Numbered from the stretch's first letter, positions 1,639 through 28,825 are shown. The stretch is 64,000 nt of DNA from an uncultured Planctomycetota bacterium (GCA_963841915.1 CAWJEN010000005.1:960001-1024000); one strand, 5' to 3'. A program made the numbers and translations. The notes: generated by a model from the letters alone, not told the origin.

Positions 1639-2763
1639 TTGCCTGAAATGCTCACGATCGCCGGACATGATGTGCCGCGTGGAACGGATGCCGACCTTCG
1701 GCTGCCGATCACGCAGACGTTCACGGGCGACACGCTCGGCCTGCCGGTGCGGGTGTTGCGGGCCAAGGAACCGGGGCCGACGTTGTTTGTCACCGCAGCG
1801 GTTCACGGCGACGAGATCAACGGCACGGGCATTGTCCACGAGCTCATGTTCGCCCAGCACCCGACCTTGCTGCGGGGCACGCTGATCCTCGTGCCGGTCG
1901 TGGATCTGTTCGGCTTCGAAACGCAAAGCCGTTACATGCCCGACGGCCGCGACCTGAATCGCTGCTTCCCCGGCGGGGCCAACGGTTCGCTGGCACGGCG
2001 GGCGGCCCACGTGCTGTTCAACGAGATCATCACCAAGTGCGACTACGGCCTCGACCTGCACTCGGCGGCGTCGGGGCGGACGAACTTTCCCAACGTTCGC
2101 GCCGATCTGGCCAACGTCGGATGTCGCAAGCTGGCAGAGGCGTTCGGGTGCGAACTCATCGTCAACGGCACCGGACCTGACGGCTCGCTGCGCAAGGCGG
2201 CGGTCAAGGCGGGCGTGCCGACGATCATCCTCGAGGCCGGTGAGCCGAGCAAGATCGAGCCGACCGTGCTCGAGATCGGCGTGCGTGGCGTGCACAACGT
2301 CCTGGCGACGCTGGGCATGACCGACAACGAACCGCGAAAGCCGCCGTATCAGGCGAAGGTCAGTCGGACGCTGTGGCTGCGTGCCCAGGCCGGTGGGTTG
2401 CTGCGATTCCACGTGGCCCCGGGCGACATCGTCGACGAAGGCCAGCCGATCAGTACGAACGTCGGCGTGTTCGGCGACTCGCAGAACGTGATCACCTCAC
2501 CGGCGGCGGGCATAGTGCTGGGCATGACGACGCTGCCGATCGTCAAGCCGGGCGAGCCGGTGTGTCACATCGCGGTGCCGACCGAGCCGATCCGCGAGCT
2601 GCGCGAGAAGCTGGCCGACGCGTCGACGCGGAGTCTGGACCATCGCGTGCGTCGGGATTTGGCGACGAACGTGACGGTGACGGAGCACGGGCTGACCGAT
2701 GCCGAGCTGTACCCGCCGGAGCAGGGCGGAGTGGTCGACGGTGGCGAGTCGGAAGAGAAGTAG
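1639..2763 (+). CDS. Succinylglutamate desuccinylase/aspartoacylase family (M14-like)
   Basis: AVHGDEING, RDLNRCFPG, LDLHS, ILEAG, C-terminal biotinyl-like domain; start TTG 1639 or ATG 1648. Confidence 0.88.
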   Translation: MPEMLTIAGHDVPRGTDADLRLPITQTFTGDTLGLPVRVLRAKEPGPTLFVTAAVHGDEINGTGIVHELMFAQHPTLLRGTLILVPVVDLFGFETQSRYMPDGRDLNRCFPGGANGSLARRAAHVLFNEIITKCDYGLDLHSAASGRTNFPNVRADLANVGCRKLAEAFGCELIVNGTGPDGSLRKAAVKAGVPTIILEAGEPSKIEPTVLEIGVRGVHNVLATLGMTDNEPRKPPYQAKVSRTLWLRAQAGGLLRFHVAPGDIVDEGQPISTNVGVFGDSQNVITSPAAGIVLGMTTLPIVKPGEPVCHIAVPTEPIRELREKLADASTRSLDHRVRRDLATNVTVTEHGLTDAELYPPEQGGVVDGGESEEK

Positions 2764-2917
2764 CGCAAAGGCGGCCGCGGCGGCGCAGTCGTAGCACGTC
2801 GCACCCCTACGCGGCGGCGGACGTTCTGCACGTGAAATTTTCAGTGACTACGCACGAATGCTGACGCACATCACATCGCAGCCGACGACCCGCGTCCGTA
2901 GCGGCGAACGTTTTTGG

Positions 2918-2933
2918 AGTTCCACGTGGAACA
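2918..2933. promoter_or_regulatory. parS site (ParB-binding palindrome)
   Basis: aGTTCCACGTGGAACa matches the parS consensus TGTTNCACGTGNAACA. Confidence 0.88.
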
Positions 2934-2991
2934 TTCTGTGACCGGCGAAGACATGAAAACCGGCTCAGAACGCCCGGCGGGGCTTGGCCAT

Positions 2992-3007
2992 TGTTCCACG
3001 TGGAACA
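2992..3007. promoter_or_regulatory. parS site
   Basis: Perfect TGTTCCACGTGGAACA. Confidence 0.92.
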
Positions 3008-3094
3008 TTTCGCAGATCGGCACGTCGCCAAGGCTCAATTGGCCGCCGCGGCGCAACAGTCGAAGCCGAACAGCACGAACCGACTCGAGGCGAC

Positions 3095-4236: not shown

Positions 4237-4358
4237 TCGCCGGCAGAGGTGGCCGGGGGGCGAGGGCACAGAGCTGGTGTCACTTAGGGCTGCTTCCTCT
4301 CGGATCTGACCCGGTTCGCGTCCAACCCTTGCCTCGGCCCGGCCACCCCTGCCGGCGA
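4237..4358 (-). ncRNA. ffs: Signal recognition particle RNA (4.5S)
   Basis: Minus strand reads GAACCGGGTCAGATCCGAGAGGAAGCAGCCCTAAG (SRP domain IV with GAGA tetraloop) inside a long closing stem (tcgccggcag.ggtggccggg / cccggccacc.ctgccggcga); ends approximate. Confidence 0.9.
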
Positions 4359-4517: not shown

Positions 4518-7382
4518 TCAAGCCTCGACAGCACCCGCTGCACGGCTGCCGTTGCCGTCACGCCAATTGCCGTAGTAGTCGGTAAAGACGCCCTTGTAGC
4601 TCTTGCCGGCCGTGGTCGCCACACCGCCGTTGGGACGGTACTGGCTGTTGAGGCTGGTGTTGCTGAACTTGTCGTTCTTGACCTGCGAGTAGTTGAGCCA
4701 CTCGTTCTCGCTGCGGAACCCGCTGTTGCCGCTGCCCGTGCCGACCCAGATGACGCCGTCAGCCCACTGGAGGTAGTCGGCGTCGGCCCAGACGTTGTTC
4801 TCGATGGTCGAGAACCCGTTGAGGTTGTCGGCGTTGACCTGCAGTAGGGCGGTGCCGTTCGGACCGGCGTAGAGGTCAGGGGCGACGAAGAGGTTGTTGG
4901 CGAGCGAGACGTTCTGCGTGCCGCTCCAGGCCCGGGCGAAGTGGCCGCGGTCGCCGTAGTTGATGACCGTGTTGTTGACGATGTGAACGTCTTTGACGGT
5001 GCGGTTGTAGCTGGCGTCGAAGCCCTCGATCTTGAACGGCGAGCCGTTGTCTTCGCGGATGACGTTGGAGCGGATATGGGCGTCTTCCGTGCCGTGCTCG
5101 ATGATGTAGCCGCCCTTGACGTTGTTGGCCTCGAAGACGCTGTGCTTGAAGCGGGCCCAGGTGTGGTTGAGGCCGTCGCCGTCGCCGAGCGGGCCGACGC
5201 CGCTGACACCGTCGATGTCGTTGTCCCAGGCGTAAGCGTACTCGCCACGCTGGATGTTGAGCACGCCCTTGGCCGTGTCGTACGGGTCGCCGTTGTTGCG
5301 ACGGTCGATGTTGGCCAAGTCGTTGCGGCCGATGTTGATGCGGTCTGCACCGTGAACACGGATGATGTGCTCGCGGGTCGAGTTGGCGACTTGGTTGCCC
5401 AGGACGGTCCAGTCGCTGCCCTGCATCCAGGCGAAGTAGCGACGCAGGTCACCGCTGCTCGGAACGTCGTTTTCGAGGAGCAGGACGCCCTGTGGCTCGG
5501 CACTTCCGAGGATGGCGTCGCCGACGTCCTTGAAGGTGGTGTTGTAGACGGTGACGTTGTCGCCGCCGGGCTGGATGGCCGACGGGACGCCGTAGCCGTT
5601 GCCGTCGTTGTCGTGGGGCGAATCAAAGACCACGTCGCGGATGGTCATGCCGGTGCGGCCGAAGTCGAACCACAGGATCTGTTTGTTGTTCCAGTGATTG
5701 CGATCATTGGTCCACATGATCGTCGGCTTGGAGCCTTGGCCGTAGGCACCGAGCACGACGTTGTTGCGTGCGAACTTGAGGGAGGTGCTCGTGCCGAAGG
5801 TCTGGCCACGCTGCAGCAGGATGGCGGCGTTGTCGCCCACCTGGTCGAGCCGTTGCATGGCACGATCAAGGGTGCGAACGGGCTTGCTGGTCGTTAGGCC
5901 GTTGTTGCTGTCGCTGCCCCACGACGCCACATAGATGCGGGTGCGGGTGTCGGGCGTGACCGTGACGGTCTTGGTGGTCGTGTTGCTGCCGCCGGCCTCG
6001 TTGTAGACCTTGAGCTTGACGGTGTAGGTGCCGGGCTGCTCGTAGAGGTGGGCGGCGTTGAAGCCGATGACCTTGTTCTGCTTGCCCGACGAGTCGCCGA
6101 AGTCCCACTCGTAGCGGGCCGTCGTCGCCTTGCCGGCCCGCAGGTCGGTGTCGAGGCCGTGGGCGTGGTAGCTGCTGCCGGCCATCAGGGTCGACGAGCT
6201 GGTCGACGTGATGCGGGCGACCGGTTGGGTGCTCCCCGTCGGCGGCTGCGGATTGGACGGAGGCTGCGGGTTCGAAGGCGGCTGGGGATTCGACGGCGGC
6301 TGGGGGTTCGTCGGCGGCTGGGGGTTGGTCGGCGGCTGGGGGTTGGTCGGCGGCGGGTTCGAGCCGTTCCGACGGAACTCCAGGTAGTCGAAGCGGCCTG
6401 CACCACCGCTGCCGGACCGGTTGAAGGTCACGCGAACCGTCTGCTCGCCGGCCGGAAGGTAAAGGTCGCCGACCTTGTGGCTGCGGAAGTTGAACCAGCC
6501 GTCGTTGGGCAGGGTCGTGTTGACCGACTGGCCGCCGGCGGTGGAGACCGTGATCTTGCCGTCGCTGATGCCGGTCGAGGCGTTGGCGTAGACGCCGAAC
6601 GTACCCGACGAGTCGACGTCAACGGTGTATTCGAGCCACTCACCGTTGCTGGCCCAGCCGACGTTTTTGACCGGCGTCAGGTCGATATCGACCTGGTCGC
6701 TTGGCCTGAGGACGCTGGAGCCGTAGCGCTGGCTGGTGGAGTCGCTGTACGCGACGCCGGGCCCGCCTTCGTCGAAGTGCTCGAACTGGACGACACCCGG
6801 CAGGTTGTGCGGGTCGTTCTGGTAGGCACGCTGGGTGCCGTTGTTGTTGTTGCTACCGCCGCCGCCGCCGCCACCACCATTGTTGTTGCTGATGGTGTAG
6901 TCGCGGCCGGAGTGGGACTCGACGCTGTCGGTACCGTCGTTGCCACCGCGGAGGGTGGCTGAGTCGTTACCTGATCCGCCGTAGACCTTGTCGTTGCCTT
7001 GGCCGGTGCGGAAGATGTCGTTGCCGTCGTTGCCGTAAGCGACGACGTCTTTGTAGATCTGCTCGGAGACGCCGAAGTTGTCGACGCCGCTGCCGCCGTT
7101 GTAACGGATCGAGCTGATCCGGTTTTCGTCGACGTAGTGGTTCTGGCCGTTGAAGATGACCAGGTAGTCCTGACCAACGTCAAGCACGCTGACGCGGTTG
7201 TCGCCCCAGGTGTTGGCGTCGATCGTCAGGACGCTGCCTTGAAGACTGACGCCAGCCAGGAGTTTGCGACCTTCCAATGTTTCGACAGCCGCCTTTGAGA
7301 CGAGGCTGCGAAGCTTACGGTTGTTGTGCTTGTTCGTAACGGCGGTAAAACGGCCGTTCGAGGGCATCGTCGGTGATTGCAT
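4518..7382 (-). CDS. Large extracellular multidomain protein: LEPR-xLL-like motif, RTX-like Ca repeats, CBM6-like, Pro-rich linker, PKD, right-handed beta-helix (lyase-like)
   Basis: ETLEGRKLLA; GNDGND/GGSGND repeats; EHFDEGG...GEWLEYTVDV; (PP[TS]NPQ)x6; YEWDFGD...HLYEQPGTYTVKL; IYVASWGSDSNNGL; NNT/NNL repeats. Confidence 0.8.
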   Translation of the reverse strand: MQSPTMPSNGRFTAVTNKHNNRKLRSLVSKAAVETLEGRKLLAGVSLQGSVLTIDANTWGDNRVSVLDVGQDYLVIFNGQNHYVDENRISSIRYNGGSGVDNFGVSEQIYKDVVAYGNDGNDIFRTGQGNDKVYGGSGNDSATLRGGNDGTDSVESHSGRDYTISNNNGGGGGGGGSNNNNGTQRAYQNDPHNLPGVVQFEHFDEGGPGVAYSDSTSQRYGSSVLRPSDQVDIDLTPVKNVGWASNGEWLEYTVDVDSSGTFGVYANASTGISDGKITVSTAGGQSVNTTLPNDGWFNFRSHKVGDLYLPAGEQTVRVTFNRSGSGGAGRFDYLEFRRNGSNPPPTNPQPPTNPQPPTNPQPPSNPQPPSNPQPPSNPQPPTGSTQPVARITSTSSSTLMAGSSYHAHGLDTDLRAGKATTARYEWDFGDSSGKQNKVIGFNAAHLYEQPGTYTVKLKVYNEAGGSNTTTKTVTVTPDTRTRIYVASWGSDSNNGLTTSKPVRTLDRAMQRLDQVGDNAAILLQRGQTFGTSTSLKFARNNVVLGAYGQGSKPTIMWTNDRNHWNNKQILWFDFGRTGMTIRDVVFDSPHDNDGNGYGVPSAIQPGGDNVTVYNTTFKDVGDAILGSAEPQGVLLLENDVPSSGDLRRYFAWMQGSDWTVLGNQVANSTREHIIRVHGADRINIGRNDLANIDRRNNGDPYDTAKGVLNIQRGEYAYAWDNDIDGVSGVGPLGDGDGLNHTWARFKHSVFEANNVKGGYIIEHGTEDAHIRSNVIREDNGSPFKIEGFDASYNRTVKDVHIVNNTVINYGDRGHFARAWSGTQNVSLANNLFVAPDLYAGPNGTALLQVNADNLNGFSTIENNVWADADYLQWADGVIWVGTGSGNSGFRSENEWLNYSQVKNDKFSNTSLNSQYRPNGGVATTAGKSYKGVFTDYYGNWRDGNGSRAAGAVEA
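6238..6354 (-). repeat. 18-bp coding tandem repeat (PP[T/S]NPQ x6)
   Basis: Visible in the translation and as ggcggctgggggttggtc-type units. Confidence 0.9.
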
Positions 7383-20236: not shown

Positions 20237-20452
20237 ATGCCCTACGTCAACATCAAGATCACCAAGTCGAACGTCTCGCGTGAGCAGAAGGCCAAGCTCG
20301 TTAGCGGTGTCACGGACCTGCTCGTCGACACGCTCGGCAAGAAGCCGGAGCACATCCACGTGGTCCTCGACCTCGTGGAGGAAGAAGATTGGGGCTTTGC
20401 GGGTCAATTGACCGATGATCTGCGACGATCTGCGGCTAAAGTCGATGCATGA
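20237..20452 (+). CDS. 4-oxalocrotonate tautomerase family protein
   Basis: Catalytic Pro1 (MPYVNIKI), EQKAKLV, WGFAG. Confidence 0.9.
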   Translation: MPYVNIKITKSNVSREQKAKLVSGVTDLLVDTLGKKPEHIHVVLDLVEEEDWGFAGQLTDDLRRSAAKVDA

Positions 20453-21093
20453 ACATCGCTTTTATCGGCTACGGCTCCATGACCAAGGCCCTTGCCCCAC
20501 GCTTCAAGACGGCGGGACATGATGTCTTCCTCGGCGGTCACAATCCGGGTAAGGCCAAGGCTGCGGCGGATGTCATCGGGGCGAGCGGGTCGGGTGATAC
20601 GAAGGACGCGGTCGCATTCGGAAAGGTGATCGTCTTGGCGACGCCGCACGACAAGGTGGACGACGCCATCGGCGATGCAGGCGGGCCGTCGGCGTTTGCG
20701 GGCAAGGTGGTGGTCGACATCAACAACCCCGTACCCGGCTACGCCGACCGAGATTTCACCGTCGTCACCTACGACGGCAAGAGCCTCGCCGAAGCCATTG
20801 CCGACAAGCTGCCGGATGCTGAAGTGTGTAAGGCGTTCAATTGCTGTCAGGCAGATGTGTGGACGATGGATCCGCCTCTGTTCGACGGCCGAAAGCTCGT
20901 GACGATGACGTGTGCGAATGGCGAGCGGGCTCGCAGCGTGGCAAAGCAACTGGTCGAAGCCACCGGCGGTGAGCCTCTCGACCTCGGCGACCTCAAGTAC
21001 GCCCGCAAGCTCGAAGCGATGGCCGGCATTGTCATCCAGCTGCTCTTCAGCGGGCGCGACACCAAGACCGTGCTCAACCTCGTAACTGCGTGA
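20449..21093 (+). CDS. NADPH-dependent F420 reductase-like oxidoreductase
   Basis: IGYGSM, GKVVVDINNP, KAFN, DLGDLKYARKLE; ATGA overlap with the tautomerase. Confidence 0.85.
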   Translation: MNIAFIGYGSMTKALAPRFKTAGHDVFLGGHNPGKAKAAADVIGASGSGDTKDAVAFGKVIVLATPHDKVDDAIGDAGGPSAFAGKVVVDINNPVPGYADRDFTVVTYDGKSLAEAIADKLPDAEVCKAFNCCQADVWTMDPPLFDGRKLVTMTCANGERARSVAKQLVEATGGEPLDLGDLKYARKLEAMAGIVIQLLFSGRDTKTVLNLVTA

Positions 21094-21109
21094 GGTTCCA
21101 CGTGGAACT
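21094..21109. promoter_or_regulatory. parS site
   Basis: gGTTCCACGTGGAACt immediately after the stop at 21093. Confidence 0.85.
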
Positions 21110-22978: not shown

Positions 22979-23047
22979 CGTCAACGCGCTGCGCCGCGGC
23001 GGCCAAGCGGGCTCGGCGGTGGTGGCGGGGTCGTCGGCGGGCTCAAT

Positions 23048-23063
23048 TGTTCCACGTGGAACA
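23048..23063. promoter_or_regulatory. parS site
   Basis: Perfect TGTTCCACGTGGAACA. Confidence 0.92.
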
Positions 23064-23113
23064 TCGCCAACCGTCGCCGCGGGCTCTCAGCGACGGTCGG
23101 CAACGTCGGCAAA

Positions 23114-23129
23114 TGTTCCACGTGGAACA
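23114..23129. promoter_or_regulatory. parS site
   Basis: Perfect TGTTCCACGTGGAACA within the 22-bp palindrome aaatgttccacgtggaacattt. Confidence 0.92.
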
Positions 23130-23369
23130 TTTTGCCTCCGCCGCTGCGTCGGCGGGTCGTCCATACTGCTGAAGGGGTACGGGCGGATTTACGGATCGAG
23201 TGCTGACGTCTGCGCTTGGTGTCGTGCCGGCAGCGAGCCGATGCGCATTGCGCCGCCGCGGCCGCCTTTGCGCTTCAAACCAGGTTGCACGTTCCTTGTC
23301 GTCATCCCTCGGCTGCGCTGGGGATAACGGCCCGGTCTGGTCCGAATGTTGCGTAGGAAGCAGGCTGCT

Positions 23370-25052: not shown

Positions 25053-27056
25053 GTGCTGGCAGCATGGCCGCTTGTGTTCGAGACGCCTTGGGTCGGCAGC
25101 CTGGCGGGAGCGGTGGCTTTGGGCTTGCTCGTCTATCGCCTGTGGCGGTTCGCCATCGTCGCAAGTTGTTTTGCCATCGCGGCGGCGTCACCGGTGTGGC
25201 TCGACGCGGCACCGCCGCGGATCGCGGTTTACGTCGATCTGTCGCCCAGCACGCGAACCGCCTTCTGGCGGGACCCGCAGACGCTGAGCCGGGTGCTTGC
25301 TGCATTTCCCGGTGAGCCGGAGCTGTTCGTCTTTGGCGAGGTGGCGATGCGGACCGGCATCGAGGTGTACGACGGTGGCGACCTGATGGCGGAGCAAACG
25401 AAGCTCGACATCAACGTCGACGCCGACGCGGCCGTCGTGCTGACAGACGGTCGTCTCGACCTGACGACGGTGCTGCCGACAAGCTTCCTCATTGATCCCG
25501 CGCTCGACGCACCCGGCGATGCGGCGGCGATGTCGCTGGAGCGAGACGGCCGTCGCGTCCTGCGGACGTGGCGAGAGAACGGCCGCGAGCTCATGCAGGT
25601 CACCGAAAGCGATGACCCACTCGCGGTCGGCGGCGATGACGCCTGGCCGGAGAACGATCGGCTGCAACTACCACCGCCACCACCAGACGGCGGACGACGC
25701 GTCATCTTCGGCAGCACGCTGCCCAGCTTCGTCACGTTGTCTTCAGCAACGTTTCCCGACCTGGCATCGGCTGACGTGGTCGTGCTGACCACCGGCGAGC
25801 TGGACCGCCAGACGGCGCAGGCGATCCGGCGATACGTGACCGATCTCGGCGGAAGCCTGGTGTTGGCGACGACGGACCTGCCGCCGACGGCGTTGGAAGC
25901 TTTGCTGCCGTTGTCGTTCGTGCCACCGGGCCCGTCGGGCCGTTGGGCGTTTTTGCTTGACGCGAGCGGGAGCATGCGTGACACGTGGCCGGCGGTGCGG
26001 CGGGCGACGCTGGCCGCCGCCGAGGCATTGCCGAAGAACGCACGCGTCGACTTGGCGATGTTCTCGGCCGACGTGACGTGGCTGGCGCGGGACGCGCAGG
26101 CGACGGAGCTGCCGACGTTGCCTGATGCGACGGGCGGGCCAACCAACTTGGCGGCGGCGGTCGATGCGGTGGCCGGGCCAAGGCAGGTGCTCGTGGTGAC
26201 CGACGCCGCCGCAGAGGTCGCTCAGGAGGTGATCGATCGGGCGGTCAACGCGGCGGTGCTCGTCCACGTGCTCCACACGGGCGACGCGGTGTCGCCATCG
26301 GTGCGAAGGCTCGTAGAGCAGACCGGCGGCACGCTCACCATTGAACCCGACGAGGCGGCGTGGCGTGACGCGGCTCGACGCCTGACACGCAACGCCTCGG
26401 CCGGCGCGATACGCGACACACCCGCGACGTTGACCCTCGACGATGTCGCGATCGAGGTCACCCGCTGGCGACAGGCGTGGGCGACGACGCGGGCGACGGT
26501 GCTGTGCGACGAACCCGCTGCGGCGTCGGTGCGGGTCGGTGCCGGCAGCGTGGTCGCGGTCGCGGCATCGCTGCCGACCGATGCGCTGCAACGCATCGCC
26601 GACGCCAATGCGTCGCAACCGGCCGGGGAGTACGACGTCCGCTGGTCAGATACGGGCGTGCTAACGGTCGAAGTCTTCGACGGCCCGGGCCGGTTCGTGC
26701 TCGTGCACGGCGACGAGCGGATCGACGCCGAGCAGGTTTCGCTGACGCATTGGCGTGCCACGCTTGCCGGCCGTCGGGAGGCGACCATTGCGGCGGTGCT
26801 GTACGGCGACGAGGTGCTGAGTCGTCAGCCGACGGCCGACCGCTATGCGAGCGAATTCGACGTGATCGGCAATGCCAGGGAGCGGCTTGCTGGGCTTGCA
26901 GACGCGGCCGGTGGCGCGGTGGTTGCCGATGTGTCACAACTGCGACACGAAGGCAGGCCGCGACGACGTCCGTTGGGGTGGCTGTTTTTGTTGCTGGCAG
27001 GTGTGTCGGCCGTTGCGTTGGCAGAACAACTTCGCCGTGGCGGCCGAGTGACCTGA
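25053..27056 (+). CDS. Membrane-anchored vWA domain protein
   Basis: N-terminal TM segments, MIDAS-like VDLSPS and LLDASGSM, GPTNL, VVTD, C-terminal TM; start uncertain. Confidence 0.75.
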   Translation: MLAAWPLVFETPWVGSLAGAVALGLLVYRLWRFAIVASCFAIAAASPVWLDAAPPRIAVYVDLSPSTRTAFWRDPQTLSRVLAAFPGEPELFVFGEVAMRTGIEVYDGGDLMAEQTKLDINVDADAAVVLTDGRLDLTTVLPTSFLIDPALDAPGDAAAMSLERDGRRVLRTWRENGRELMQVTESDDPLAVGGDDAWPENDRLQLPPPPPDGGRRVIFGSTLPSFVTLSSATFPDLASADVVVLTTGELDRQTAQAIRRYVTDLGGSLVLATTDLPPTALEALLPLSFVPPGPSGRWAFLLDASGSMRDTWPAVRRATLAAAEALPKNARVDLAMFSADVTWLARDAQATELPTLPDATGGPTNLAAAVDAVAGPRQVLVVTDAAAEVAQEVIDRAVNAAVLVHVLHTGDAVSPSVRRLVEQTGGTLTIEPDEAAWRDAARRLTRNASAGAIRDTPATLTLDDVAIEVTRWRQAWATTRATVLCDEPAAASVRVGAGSVVAVAASLPTDALQRIADANASQPAGEYDVRWSDTGVLTVEVFDGPGRFVLVHGDERIDAEQVSLTHWRATLAGRREATIAAVLYGDEVLSRQPTADRYASEFDVIGNARERLAGLADAAGGAVVADVSQLRHEGRPRRRPLGWLFLLLAGVSAVALAEQLRRGGRVT

Positions 27057-27129
27057 TGGACCCATCCGGGATCGAACCGGAAACCTCTGCCTTGCAAAAG
27101 CAGCGCTCTCCCAATTGAGCTATGGGCCC
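27057..27129 (-). tRNA. tRNA-Ala(TGC)
   Basis: GGGCCCATAGCTCAATTGGGAGAGCGCTGCTTTTGCAAGGCAGAGGTTTCCGGTTCGATCCCGGATGGGTCCA; G3:U70 pair; no CCA. Confidence 0.96.
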
Positions 27130-27250
27130 GCGTCGCCGTCCGAGGTCGGTGGCGGGGCGGGCAGTCTACCCGCGCCAAGTGGCCGCGTCAGCAGGGCGTA
27201 TGGCGCGCGCCTGTTGCGACTTCTTGGCGACCTCATTTTCTTGCAACGAG

Positions 27251-27266
27251 TGGCCACGCGATTGCT
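27251..27266 (+). promoter_or_regulatory. Candidate sigma-54 (-24/-12) promoter
   Basis: TGGCCACGCGATTGCT has exact GG-N10-GC spacing with TGGC and TTGCW, 85 nt upstream of ATG 27351. Confidence 0.5.
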
Positions 27267-27350
27267 CTACCGCTATCGCCTGCCTCTTCGGCCTGACCAG
27301 CCGCATCTCGCACCGCTGACCTGCCCGCACTGAGTTTATCGACCGCCGCC

Positions 27351-28208
27351 ATGACTGTTGCTGTTCAACCACCCGTTCGACCGCTGGATCGTGCTCTTGT
27401 ACCGCTGAGTCCGTTCACGAGCACGCTCGGCGGTTGTTACGTTCGCCAAGGCGGCAAGCTCGTCAAACTCAGCGGTGGGGCGGACAACGCTGTCGGCCTG
27501 CGGGCGGCGGCAGTCGATGGGGCGTTTCGCGGCATCGCCGGTGACCCGGCGTTTCCGTGCGTCGGGGCCAAGTCTGCCGTGAATCTGGCGTCCTATCGCG
27601 TCGGGGTCTACGACACGCTCGGCTCAGAAGATGCGACGCAAGGACTTTGCCGGGATCTGTGGCAGTTCGGCCAGGAGTTCGACCAGGTCGACGGCAACTT
27701 CGCGACGTTCCTGGCGACGTTCGACGGGCCGGCCGCGCTGGACGAGCAGACGTTCGAGGACCTGTTTTGGCAGCAACTTCAACGTCTTCACGATGCTGAC
27801 GCGCAGCTACACGCGTGGGACGCGGCCGTCAGCAGCGACCCGGCTGATGATCACTTTTCATTCAGCTTCGGCGGAAGGGCGTTCTTTTTGGTCGGCCTGC
27901 ACCCGTCGGCCAGCCGCATCGCCAGGCGATTTCCCTACCCGGCCATCGCCTTTAATGTGCACGAGCAATTCGAACGCCTGCGTGAAGAGGGCAAGATGGA
28001 CCGCATGAAGCAGGTTATTCGGCAAAAGGACAAGCAGCTTCAGGGCGAGGTCAATCCGGTGCTCCGTGACTTTGGCGACGGAAGTGAGGCCCGCCAGTAC
28101 AGCGGCCGGGCGGTGGAAGATGACTGGACGGCTCCCTTCACATCGCATCCAAAGCCGGCCGGTTCGAGATGCCCGTTCCAACGACTGATGAAGTGGGGCC
28201 GTTCTTGA
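27351..28208 (+). CDS. YqcI/YcgG family (GntA/DcsA-like) heme-dependent guanidino N-hydroxylase
   Basis: FPCVGA, LWQQLQRLH-like segment, SSDP..HFSFSFGG.AFF.VGLHP..SR.ARRF, AFN.HEQFE.LR, SEARQYSGR. Confidence 0.85.
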   Translation: MTVAVQPPVRPLDRALVPLSPFTSTLGGCYVRQGGKLVKLSGGADNAVGLRAAAVDGAFRGIAGDPAFPCVGAKSAVNLASYRVGVYDTLGSEDATQGLCRDLWQFGQEFDQVDGNFATFLATFDGPAALDEQTFEDLFWQQLQRLHDADAQLHAWDAAVSSDPADDHFSFSFGGRAFFLVGLHPSASRIARRFPYPAIAFNVHEQFERLREEGKMDRMKQVIRQKDKQLQGEVNPVLRDFGDGSEARQYSGRAVEDDWTAPFTSHPKPAGSRCPFQRLMKWGRS

Positions 28209-28825
28209 ATCTTCAGCATCGCATACCACCGGCAAGCGGGCGGGCGTTCCTTGTTCGTCGGGGTCAGACGCTTCGCATCTGCGACCCATTCGGGAGCCAG
28301 GTGGCGGATCTGCTCTGCTACGGCCTCGAAGGCGACAAGGCGACGGCGGAGTACGTCAGTGGTGGCAGAAGCATCGACTACGCCAGCAAGCTCTACCTCA
28401 CGACGAACGACACGCTTTACAGCAACCGCAGCCGCCCGATGCTGAAGATCGGTCGCGACGACTGTGGGCGTCATGATTTCACGCTAACGCCTTGTTCTGC
28501 GGAGATGTATCGACTTTTGTATCAGGACGACGGCAGCCACCCGTCGTGCTTTGCCAATCTCCGCGACAGCCTGAGCGACTACGGCGTGACGCCGGACCAG
28601 ATCCCGACGACGTTCAATGTCTTTATGAACGTGACGTACGCCTCGGCAGAGGCGGCAGTGCCGGGAGCGATGACGATCGGGCCGCCGCTGAGCAAGGCCG
28701 GTGATGTAATAGAGTTTGCCGCAGTGATGGATCTTGTGGTCGGCTTGACTAGTTGTCCGAGCGAGACGACCAATCATGTTGAGAACGCCTCTGACTTGAA
28801 GCCGATTGACTATGAAGTGATTTGA
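28205..28825 (+). CDS. DUF1989 (urea carboxylase-associated/CgdA-B-like) protein
   Basis: GQTLRICDPFGSQVADL, LYSNRSRPML, DDCGRHD...PCS, HPSCFANL, FNVFMNV, PPLSKAGD, MDLVVGLTSCP; TTG start overlaps the upstream TGA. Confidence 0.88.
   Translation: MNLQHRIPPASGRAFLVRRGQTLRICDPFGSQVADLLCYGLEGDKATAEYVSGGRSIDYASKLYLTTNDTLYSNRSRPMLKIGRDDCGRHDFTLTPCSAEMYRLLYQDDGSHPSCFANLRDSLSDYGVTPDQIPTTFNVFMNVTYASAEAAVPGAMTIGPPLSKAGDVIEFAAVMDLVVGLTSCPSETTNHVENASDLKPIDYEVI

Follow-up and report, generated by a model that had tools for sequence, protein, structure and literature searches.

The window analysed here is the whole 64,000-nucleotide stretch G000:C5:960001-1024000 from the assembly of an uncultured Planctomycetota bacterium (G000; 3.63 Mb in 6 contigs, 93.8% complete, contamination 0.03%, no N). 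The named homologues of one window protein belong mainly to Planctomycetota. Five parS-like sites with at most 2 mismatches occur in it, against 0 in each of 100 shuffled windows. The initial annotation had described two inverted copies of a cassette with a common block order, and its blocks lie where it had placed them: an identical 26-mer (2762-2787 and 23274-23249), a block matching at 19 of 23 positions (2884-2906 and 23161-23139), a pair of parS sites with starts 74 bp apart in one copy (2918 and 2992) and 66 bp apart in the other (23114 and 23048), and an identical 17-mer (3039-3055 and 23006-22990). The 11-bp inverted match reported between the ends (2774-2784 and 3042-3052) is present too, but the ends are better described as a 15-bp direct repeat. 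Both copies lie between convergent genes, as had been observed; genome-wide such a location is favoured, not required, and holds for only 24 of 63 cassettes (11.3 expected). The features are listed below in window coordinates.

2762..3059 (genome G000:C5:962762-963059), plus strand: cassette 1, the whole oriented module, profile score 167 bits
2762..2787, plus strand: left box of cassette 1, a 26-bp imperfect palindrome with centre GCGGCCGC, likely site for a second protein; the 15 bp on its right side form a direct repeat with the right box
2788..2883, plus strand: variable arm of cassette 1, 9-10 helical turns of likely bent or wrapped DNA, with A/T dinucleotides and CG(C/T)A words at a 10.6-10.8-bp period
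2884..2900, plus strand: mid box of cassette 1, with 4 mismatches to the consensus GACGACCCGCCGACGCA; the consensus box also occurs in the native parS cluster behind parB
2918..2933, no strand assigned: parS1 of cassette 1, 1 mismatch; dispensable, missing from several copies
2934..2991, plus strand: spacer of cassette 1, with loose AACCC...GGGT inverted arms that show no within-copy covariation
2992..3007, no strand assigned: parS2 of cassette 1, perfect, in a helical phase shared with the mid box and the right box
3039..3059, plus strand: right box of cassette 1, TTGGCCGCCGCGGCGCA, with its 4-nt tail
22986..23274, minus strand: cassette 2, whole, profile score 174 bits
23274-23249, 23248-23162 and 23161-23145, minus strand: left box, phased arm and mid box of cassette 2
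23129-23114, 23063-23048 and 23006-22990, minus strand: parS1, parS2 and right box of cassette 2
21094..21109, no strand assigned: solo parS of cassette 2 (2 mismatches), 1.9 kb past its right end
25774..28774 (approximate), minus strand: left skew lobe of cassette 2, lying 2.5-5.5 kb past its left end, with an excess of C on the strand of the cassette (-0.064)

The window further contains a small SRP RNA (4247-4345, minus strand), a tRNA gene (27057-27129, minus strand) and, within the large gene 4518-7367, five repeats with an 18-bp period that encode a proline-rich linker (6237-6362).

Throughout G000 there are 175 parS-like 16-mers with at most 2 mismatches, 121 of them perfect. A cassette profile built on 45 clear copies and run against the assembly matches 64 loci: 63 cassettes, present on 5 of the 6 contigs, and a degenerate copy in the native parS cluster, where 8 sites surround the sole parB gene. 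This degenerate copy has the mid box, the parS pair and a right-box-like end, and lacks the left box. The cassettes contain 122 of the 175 sites, and the proposed linkage of the flanking boxes to parS is borne out across the genome (the left-box pattern has 59 matches in cassettes and 8 elsewhere, the mid box 40 and 3). Other genomes carry few perfect sites: 0-11 in 40 relatives, 0-2 in four congeners and a maximum of 22 among 400 other genomes of the phylum. Pairs of parS 44-72 bp apart number 51 in G000, 9 and 7 in the family members G083 and G048, one in each of 3 family genomes and zero in 135 others.

Conservation of the cassette in relatives, on which the initial annotation had made its case depend, was not found in 140 family genomes, GTDB representatives or JGI metagenomes, where the GTDB, JGI and viral-contig searches may omit records very near the window genome. 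Its absence from the relatives searched marks it as a lineage-specific element rather than a generic repeat. Among the GTDB representatives the exact pattern of mid box plus parS pair matches one locus (Archangium, L018), where the clustered parS sites lack end boxes. The JGI metagenomes give 0 matches to the right-end pattern and 18 loci to a looser one. End or mid boxes are correctly placed in none of the 18, and 9 adjoin a parB homologue. Nine pattern loci in viral contigs, the best at 24 bits, were judged to be chance matches. We found no description of such an element in the literature as represented by listings, the opening parts of abstracts and few subscription papers, supplements excluded. 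The cassettes, all from a single assembly, are a real, lineage-specific family, seemingly under selection and outside every family tested.

Each cassette has the order left box, variable arm, mid box, parS1, spacer, parS2, right box, and the distances between these landmarks are quantised. In the 57 of 64 loci where the mid box could be located, left and mid box are 87-89 or 96-99 bp apart, mid box and parS2 approximately 65, 75 or 85 bp, and parS2 and right box approximately 23, 33 or 43 bp. Among the 49 copies in which all five landmarks are located, these three distances have a phase coherence at 10.5 bp of 0.87-0.91, compared with 0.53-0.61 for distances involving parS1; copies with one site retain parS2. 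The end boxes of the 49 copies form the 15-bp direct repeat with a mean identity of 13.4/15, and the internal 11-bp inverted match is perfect in 20 of them. The arm itself is hardly conserved (32% identity between copies, 26% when shuffled, 57% in the best pair), and its A/T dinucleotides recur with a period of 10.8 bp (Rayleigh Z 82 vs 7 in flanks) and its CG(C/T)A words with one of 10.6 bp; ACCC/GACC words in the arm show no periodicity. Phasing together with a periodic arm would place a protein complex on one face of the duplex, and the 10-bp steps in length point to duplex DNA rather than RNA. The helical phasing strongly favours the suggestion that the cassette is a composite site whose boxes bind a second factor.

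The distribution of the cassettes along the chromosome is also regular. They occur about every 55 kb (mean gap 54 kb, range 11-130 kb) with a coefficient of variation of 0.52, or 0.54 without the native locus, compared with 0.96+-0.11 for random gene junctions, and 0 of 20,000 draws were equally even. Orientations are balanced (34 plus, 30 minus) and unlinked to long-range skew (P 0.5). Gap size depends on how the neighbours face: the mean gap is 42 kb between two right ends (n=18), 51 kb for mixed pairs (n=27) and 76 kb between two left ends (n=14), a rise with the number of facing left ends that gives a Spearman coefficient of 0.46 (permutation P 0.00065).

Comparison with a congener (G001, 80% complete; 2.8 of 3.3 Mb compared with a purpose-made gene caller; 1,802 reciprocal best hits of median identity 68%) reveals the empty orthologous sites that had been proposed as a check. 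At five junctions the same two neighbour genes adjoin in G001 with the cassette absent, and the intergenic lengths are 484, 371, 314, 308 and 293 bp in G000 vs 158, 3, 4, 20 and 0 bp in G001, a genome with zero profile matches and zero sites within 2 mismatches of parS. Junctions with a cassette are less often syntenic than others (12 of 48 testable vs 1,223 of 2,138, Fisher P 1e-5), and the deficit persists against gaps of at least 150 bp (P 0.001). Integration next to tRNA genes is not apparent, since one of 51 tRNA/tmRNA genes lies within 1 kb of a cassette. Four intergenic orphan boxes (G000:C5:586856, 615760 and 679553; C6:1187146) join the start of a left box to the tail of a right box, with no parS nearby and inconsistent skew lobes. 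Deletion between direct repeats would yield such boxes, which may therefore be excision scars.

Outside the cassettes and the native cluster, 45 parS-like sites occur, and they are one-sided: 41 lie within 3.5 kb of a cassette's right end (0.4-3.5 kb off), and none falls in the 3.5 kb beside a left end, against an expectation of 6%. At 2 mismatches or fewer, 24 of the 64 cassettes have no such solo site, and half-parS sequences are not enriched on the right side (23 vs 30). Solo sites are found in intergenic DNA and inside genes in all three frames, and none has cassette flanks. They keep the 14-bp core, while the outer bases are degenerate (T in 24 of 44 vs 115 of 122 in cassettes), which fits de novo evolution and not copying. 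At all 18 of the 48 solo sites that can be aligned to G001, the homologous DNA differs from parS by 5-13 mismatches; in the window, the solo site at 21094..21109 directly follows the stop codon of gene 20449-21093, and the aligned place in G001 has 8 mismatches. Where codons can be aligned, amino acids are altered at 6 of 7 sites within conserved surroundings (for example, VCHVEQVP vs VCDRDEVP). The polarity of these gains is set by one outgroup, G001, and no congener has more than 4 sites that match the core with one mismatch or fewer. We read the pattern as repeated positive selection for putative one-sided ParB loading.

The base composition beside the cassettes is asymmetric as well. With all cassettes read in the same direction, the GC skew has negative values between -5.5 and -2.5 kb, passes through zero at about -2 kb and has positive values between -1.2 and +1.5 kb, so that the flip has the sign typical of an origin (C-rich to G-rich). 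In skew windows picked after inspection of the profile, the right side exceeds the left in 59 of 62 cassettes (context-matched null mean 31, maximum 45). The difference is seen in both halves of the data and in every gene context, appears at 4-fold sites on both gene strands with extremes of -0.17 and +0.22, and is abolished by flipping the orientation. The left-side skew is missing in the G001 orthologues (-0.03, +0.003), and the right-side skew is mildly positive there too (0.08 vs 0.13). GC content is higher on the left in 47 of 63 cassettes (P 2.5e-5). The signal is limited to about -5.5 to +1.5 kb: positive skew is absent 5-30 kb to the right, and neither a long-range sawtooth nor a T/A step at 4-fold sites is present. 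One 8-mer, TGCGGACG, is strand-biased in the flanks between -5.5 and +1.5 kb (48 vs 6), a borderline result after 7,676 tests in post hoc windows.

G000 encodes one ParB with parS around its gene, SMC, ScpA and ParA-family ATPases, along with two dnaA genes, one GyrA/ParC homologue and two HU/IHF genes. The ParB scores above the TIGR00180 cut-off and has 198 bits vs the Noc cut-off of 315; it is the single ParB_N gene in G000, and a second paralogue is absent. Its LGRGL-type N-terminal peptide is presumably the ParA-stimulating motif. Behind parB, purH (G000:C5:831059-832679, adjoining L001) is called as two ORFs vs one in G001, possibly owing to a frameshift, and its 5' part encodes an in-frame parS-like site. 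In G001 (G001:C1:212149 and 213327), the helix-turn-helix region of ParB is altered and the parB gene is flanked by variants of the parS palindrome, an apparent shift of predicted specificity within one genus.

G000 also has a plasmid-type module composed of a winged-helix gene (a MarR_2 match) with five internal iterons, a small second gene, and a ParA with a partner carrying three 18-bp centromere-like palindromes; we call the first two genes Rep-like and RHH-like by what we take to be their resemblance. Its halves (G000:C6:368954-371100, L206, and C6:378342-379989, L207) are split around dnaA at the chromosome-scale skew minimum. The module is contiguous in another family genome, G060 (L208), and 24 of the 140 family genomes have a member of its Rep family. 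A tandem run of about 13-15 eight-base units lies upstream of the plasmid-type parA (G000:C6:380100-380250). We considered this Rep/ParA module as the source of the box-binding factor and reject it provisionally: the iterons and the centromere-like 18-mer occur only locally and not in the cassettes, and the module is also found in G060, which lacks the parS pair and has no parS in the 8 kb examined. As a speculation, the module may have assumed origin segregation and so freed ParB.

The lattice of cassettes, with its even and orientation-dependent spacing, helical phasing, solo sites on the right only, skew flip on the left and empty sites in the congener, is a matter of observation. The account of it that we prefer, a roughly even prospect judged by sequence patterns, is that the 63 inserted, oriented and phased parS modules would act as one-way ParB loading stations that recruit SMC condensin, the chromosome being folded as a chain of loops. 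The module would have been derived from the native parS cluster behind parB and then spread by recombination. At a station, the single chromosomal ParB would clamp at parS2 and parS1, and a second protein, bound along the phased left half of the module from left box to mid box, arm included, would block leftward sliding, so that ParB would spread to the right, where selection would have written additional parS even within coding sequence. SMC-ScpAB loaded at the station would act mostly leftward, making the left territory larger than the right. Loading of ParB and SMC alone leaves the mutational skew flip and the higher GC on the left unexplained; the flip could be the trace of a local strand-asymmetric DNA process acting approximately 2 kb to the left, for which priming of replication at that place would be the simplest candidate. 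Such an arrangement departs from experience elsewhere. In B. subtilis, dispersed strong parS sites lead to Smc collisions that clustering of parS avoids, according to the available sections of PMC8357415, and ectopic parS in two model species are tolerated only within ~600 kb of the origin, according to those of Jalal and Le (2020, PMC7333895). The cell studied here must therefore differ.

Chromosome-wide tolerance of parS would be resolved if each cassette were a unit of origin and centromere, with boxes that load an initiator or helicase, replication starting ~2 kb to the left and parS segregating the replicon; we consider this possible but rather unlikely. The origin-type sign of the flip in 59 of 62 cassettes agrees with it, as does the codon spectrum of the flip, which resembles the long-range replichore bias (r 0.72 for G001, 0.80 for G000) and is 1.5-2 times stronger. 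Chromosome-scale skew in G000 is weak and patchy, and clusters of 3 DnaA boxes within 600 bp are not found in the genome. However, G001 is equally without such a cluster and equally weak in skew, and any G/C bias would correlate with the codon spectrum. The signal is gone past ~5 kb, the flip point has no conserved word and its region is not AT-rich. Moreover, a skew minimum persists near dnaA and the Rep gene (C6:340-380 kb), and the iterons of that gene are absent from the cassettes. The corresponding picture of a holocentric, multi-origin chromosome, with 63 origin-plus-centromere units ~55 kb apart, replication ~2 kb to the left and ParB/condensin loading to the right, is tentative to the same degree. 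If true, it would mean that a eukaryote-like replicon and loop architecture evolved in one planctomycete genus.

The cassettes might instead be non-autonomous selfish elements with a captured parS, of no benefit to the host and evenly spaced by target immunity, which is known from Mu and Tn7. This is distinctly unlikely. The cassette is a discrete inserted unit with empty sites, is absent from congeners, is commoner at synteny breaks, ends in 15-bp direct repeats and has left four scar-like fusions of left box and right tail, all of which suit a mobile element. On the other hand, the boxes and their phasing are conserved while the DNA that separates them is only 32% identical between copies, young near-identical copies are lacking, and solo parS were gained in host genes at an amino-acid cost. 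Words shared between the two flanks of the 49 copies, as expected of target-site duplications, are at the between-copy null. Among the three enzyme families covered, no reverse transcriptase is found in G000, and Y1 transposases and tyrosine recombinases are not in excess over relatives. The earlier view of the cassette as a MITE or REP-like element accordingly loses its support, with target-site duplication, terminal inverted repeats and covariation all lacking and the inter-box DNA so diverged; as regards REP/BIME-RAYT elements, the left-box arms do not covary and the cassettes are over-dispersed.

A third alternative treats the cassettes as strong gyrase sites coupled to ParB, with gyrase wrapped by the periodic arm, on the model of BIME-2 and the strong gyrase site of Mu, and supercoil domains of ~55 kb; we regard it as quite improbable. 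The arm repeats every 10.6-10.8 bp, in agreement with the GC content of the E. coli gyrase motif, which is periodic at 10.75 bp and for which BIME-2 are strong sites, as reported in the accessible part of Sutormin et al. (2019, PMC6379681). Convergent genes are enriched around the cassettes, the genome has a single GyrA/ParC homologue, and the enrichment of breakpoints fits gyrase cleavage. The gyrase motif is, as far as that part of the source describes it, symmetric and degenerate, whereas the cassette is one-sided with invariant boxes, and gyrase leaves the one-sided solo sites and the flip 2 kb away unexplained. Wrapping by gyrase could be a component of the loading-station account and not an alternative to it.

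A structured RNA, or a single-strand hairpin held shut by pairing of the end boxes and of the two parS sites, is very improbable and largely refuted. Folding of both window copies gives -74 kcal/mol, with stems that join the two ends and the two parS sites, but such stems are a consequence of palindromy, the left and right ends of the 49 copies pair no better within a copy than when shuffled (9.92/11 vs 9.93, no covariation), the left-box arms pair less than shuffled ones, Rfam matches only the tRNA and SRP RNA in window positions 1-30000 and leaves the cassette unmatched, and lengths change in 10-bp steps, so that the structured-RNA reading of the initial annotation is left without support. 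An assembly or binning artefact, to be considered for an element found in one assembly and in none of the others searched, is scarcely credible when no two copies are the same, cassettes sit in the interior of N-free contigs of 1.3 and 1.7 Mb, contamination is 0.03%, solo sites are in frame in genes and the flanking genes are adjacent in G001.

Composite sites in which several protein boxes are set at whole-helical-turn spacing are familiar from P1 plasmid parS, res and iteron-type sites. The cassettes resemble them in having multiple boxes spaced in whole helical turns and differ in being 63 chromosomal copies with generic chromosomal parS, as opposed to a single copy on a plasmid with its own proteins; the sequences of the cassette boxes match none of those that could be tested. 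With chromosomal ParABS they share the 16-bp parS, one ParB with parS round its gene, ParA, SMC and ScpA. Known chromosomal parS number from 1 to ~23 sites near the origin in the available text of Jalal and Le (2020, PMC7333895), in contrast to the 175 sites here, with 63 oriented, phased composite modules tiling the chromosome and one-sided satellites. The Noc/NBS system of Firmicutes, which in the same text uses NBS and an amphipathic helix (PMC7333895), is alike in its ParB-family clamp and its many chromosome-dispersed sites; it is unlike the present system, which has parS and not NBS, no second ParB paralogue and composite oriented cassettes. BIME-2/REP elements with strong gyrase sites are, in the accessible part of PMC6379681, likewise dispersed intergenic mosaics of ~10.7-bp periodic, bendable DNA, often placed after genes, but the cassettes have no REP hairpins, clustering or RAYT neighbour, carry parS, and are even and directional.

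Bacterial centromeres are, in the portions of the literature available here, thought to be confined to the vicinity of the origin; the G000 chromosome breaks this rule 63 times, with a spacing law and a direction, and with signs of selection strong enough to rewrite host codons. The cassettes yield mapped predictions for one-sided ParB spreading, for a loop size encoded in DNA and for nucleoid organisation in planctomycetes, and the origin-type flip next to almost all modules hints that a bacterial chromosome might have many origins.

Other arrangements of parS, with flanks that differ from the cassette's, occur in the family: G083 (L165) has 71 core parS sites and G048 (L162) has 29, those of G083 being extended palindromes grouped in small clusters, which the first 50 sites listed place on 17 contigs or more. 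The dispersed parS of these two genomes suggest that confinement near the origin has been relaxed repeatedly in the family. G000 itself contains a separate REP-like family of 36 exact 16-mer matches, clustered at G000:C5:405-624 kb and C6:1459-1463 kb and densest beside a Y1-transposase match at C6:1463 kb. A metagenomic contig (L188:5344-6672) has 11 parS sites, ten of which form a regular array with alternating steps of 76 and 81 bp.
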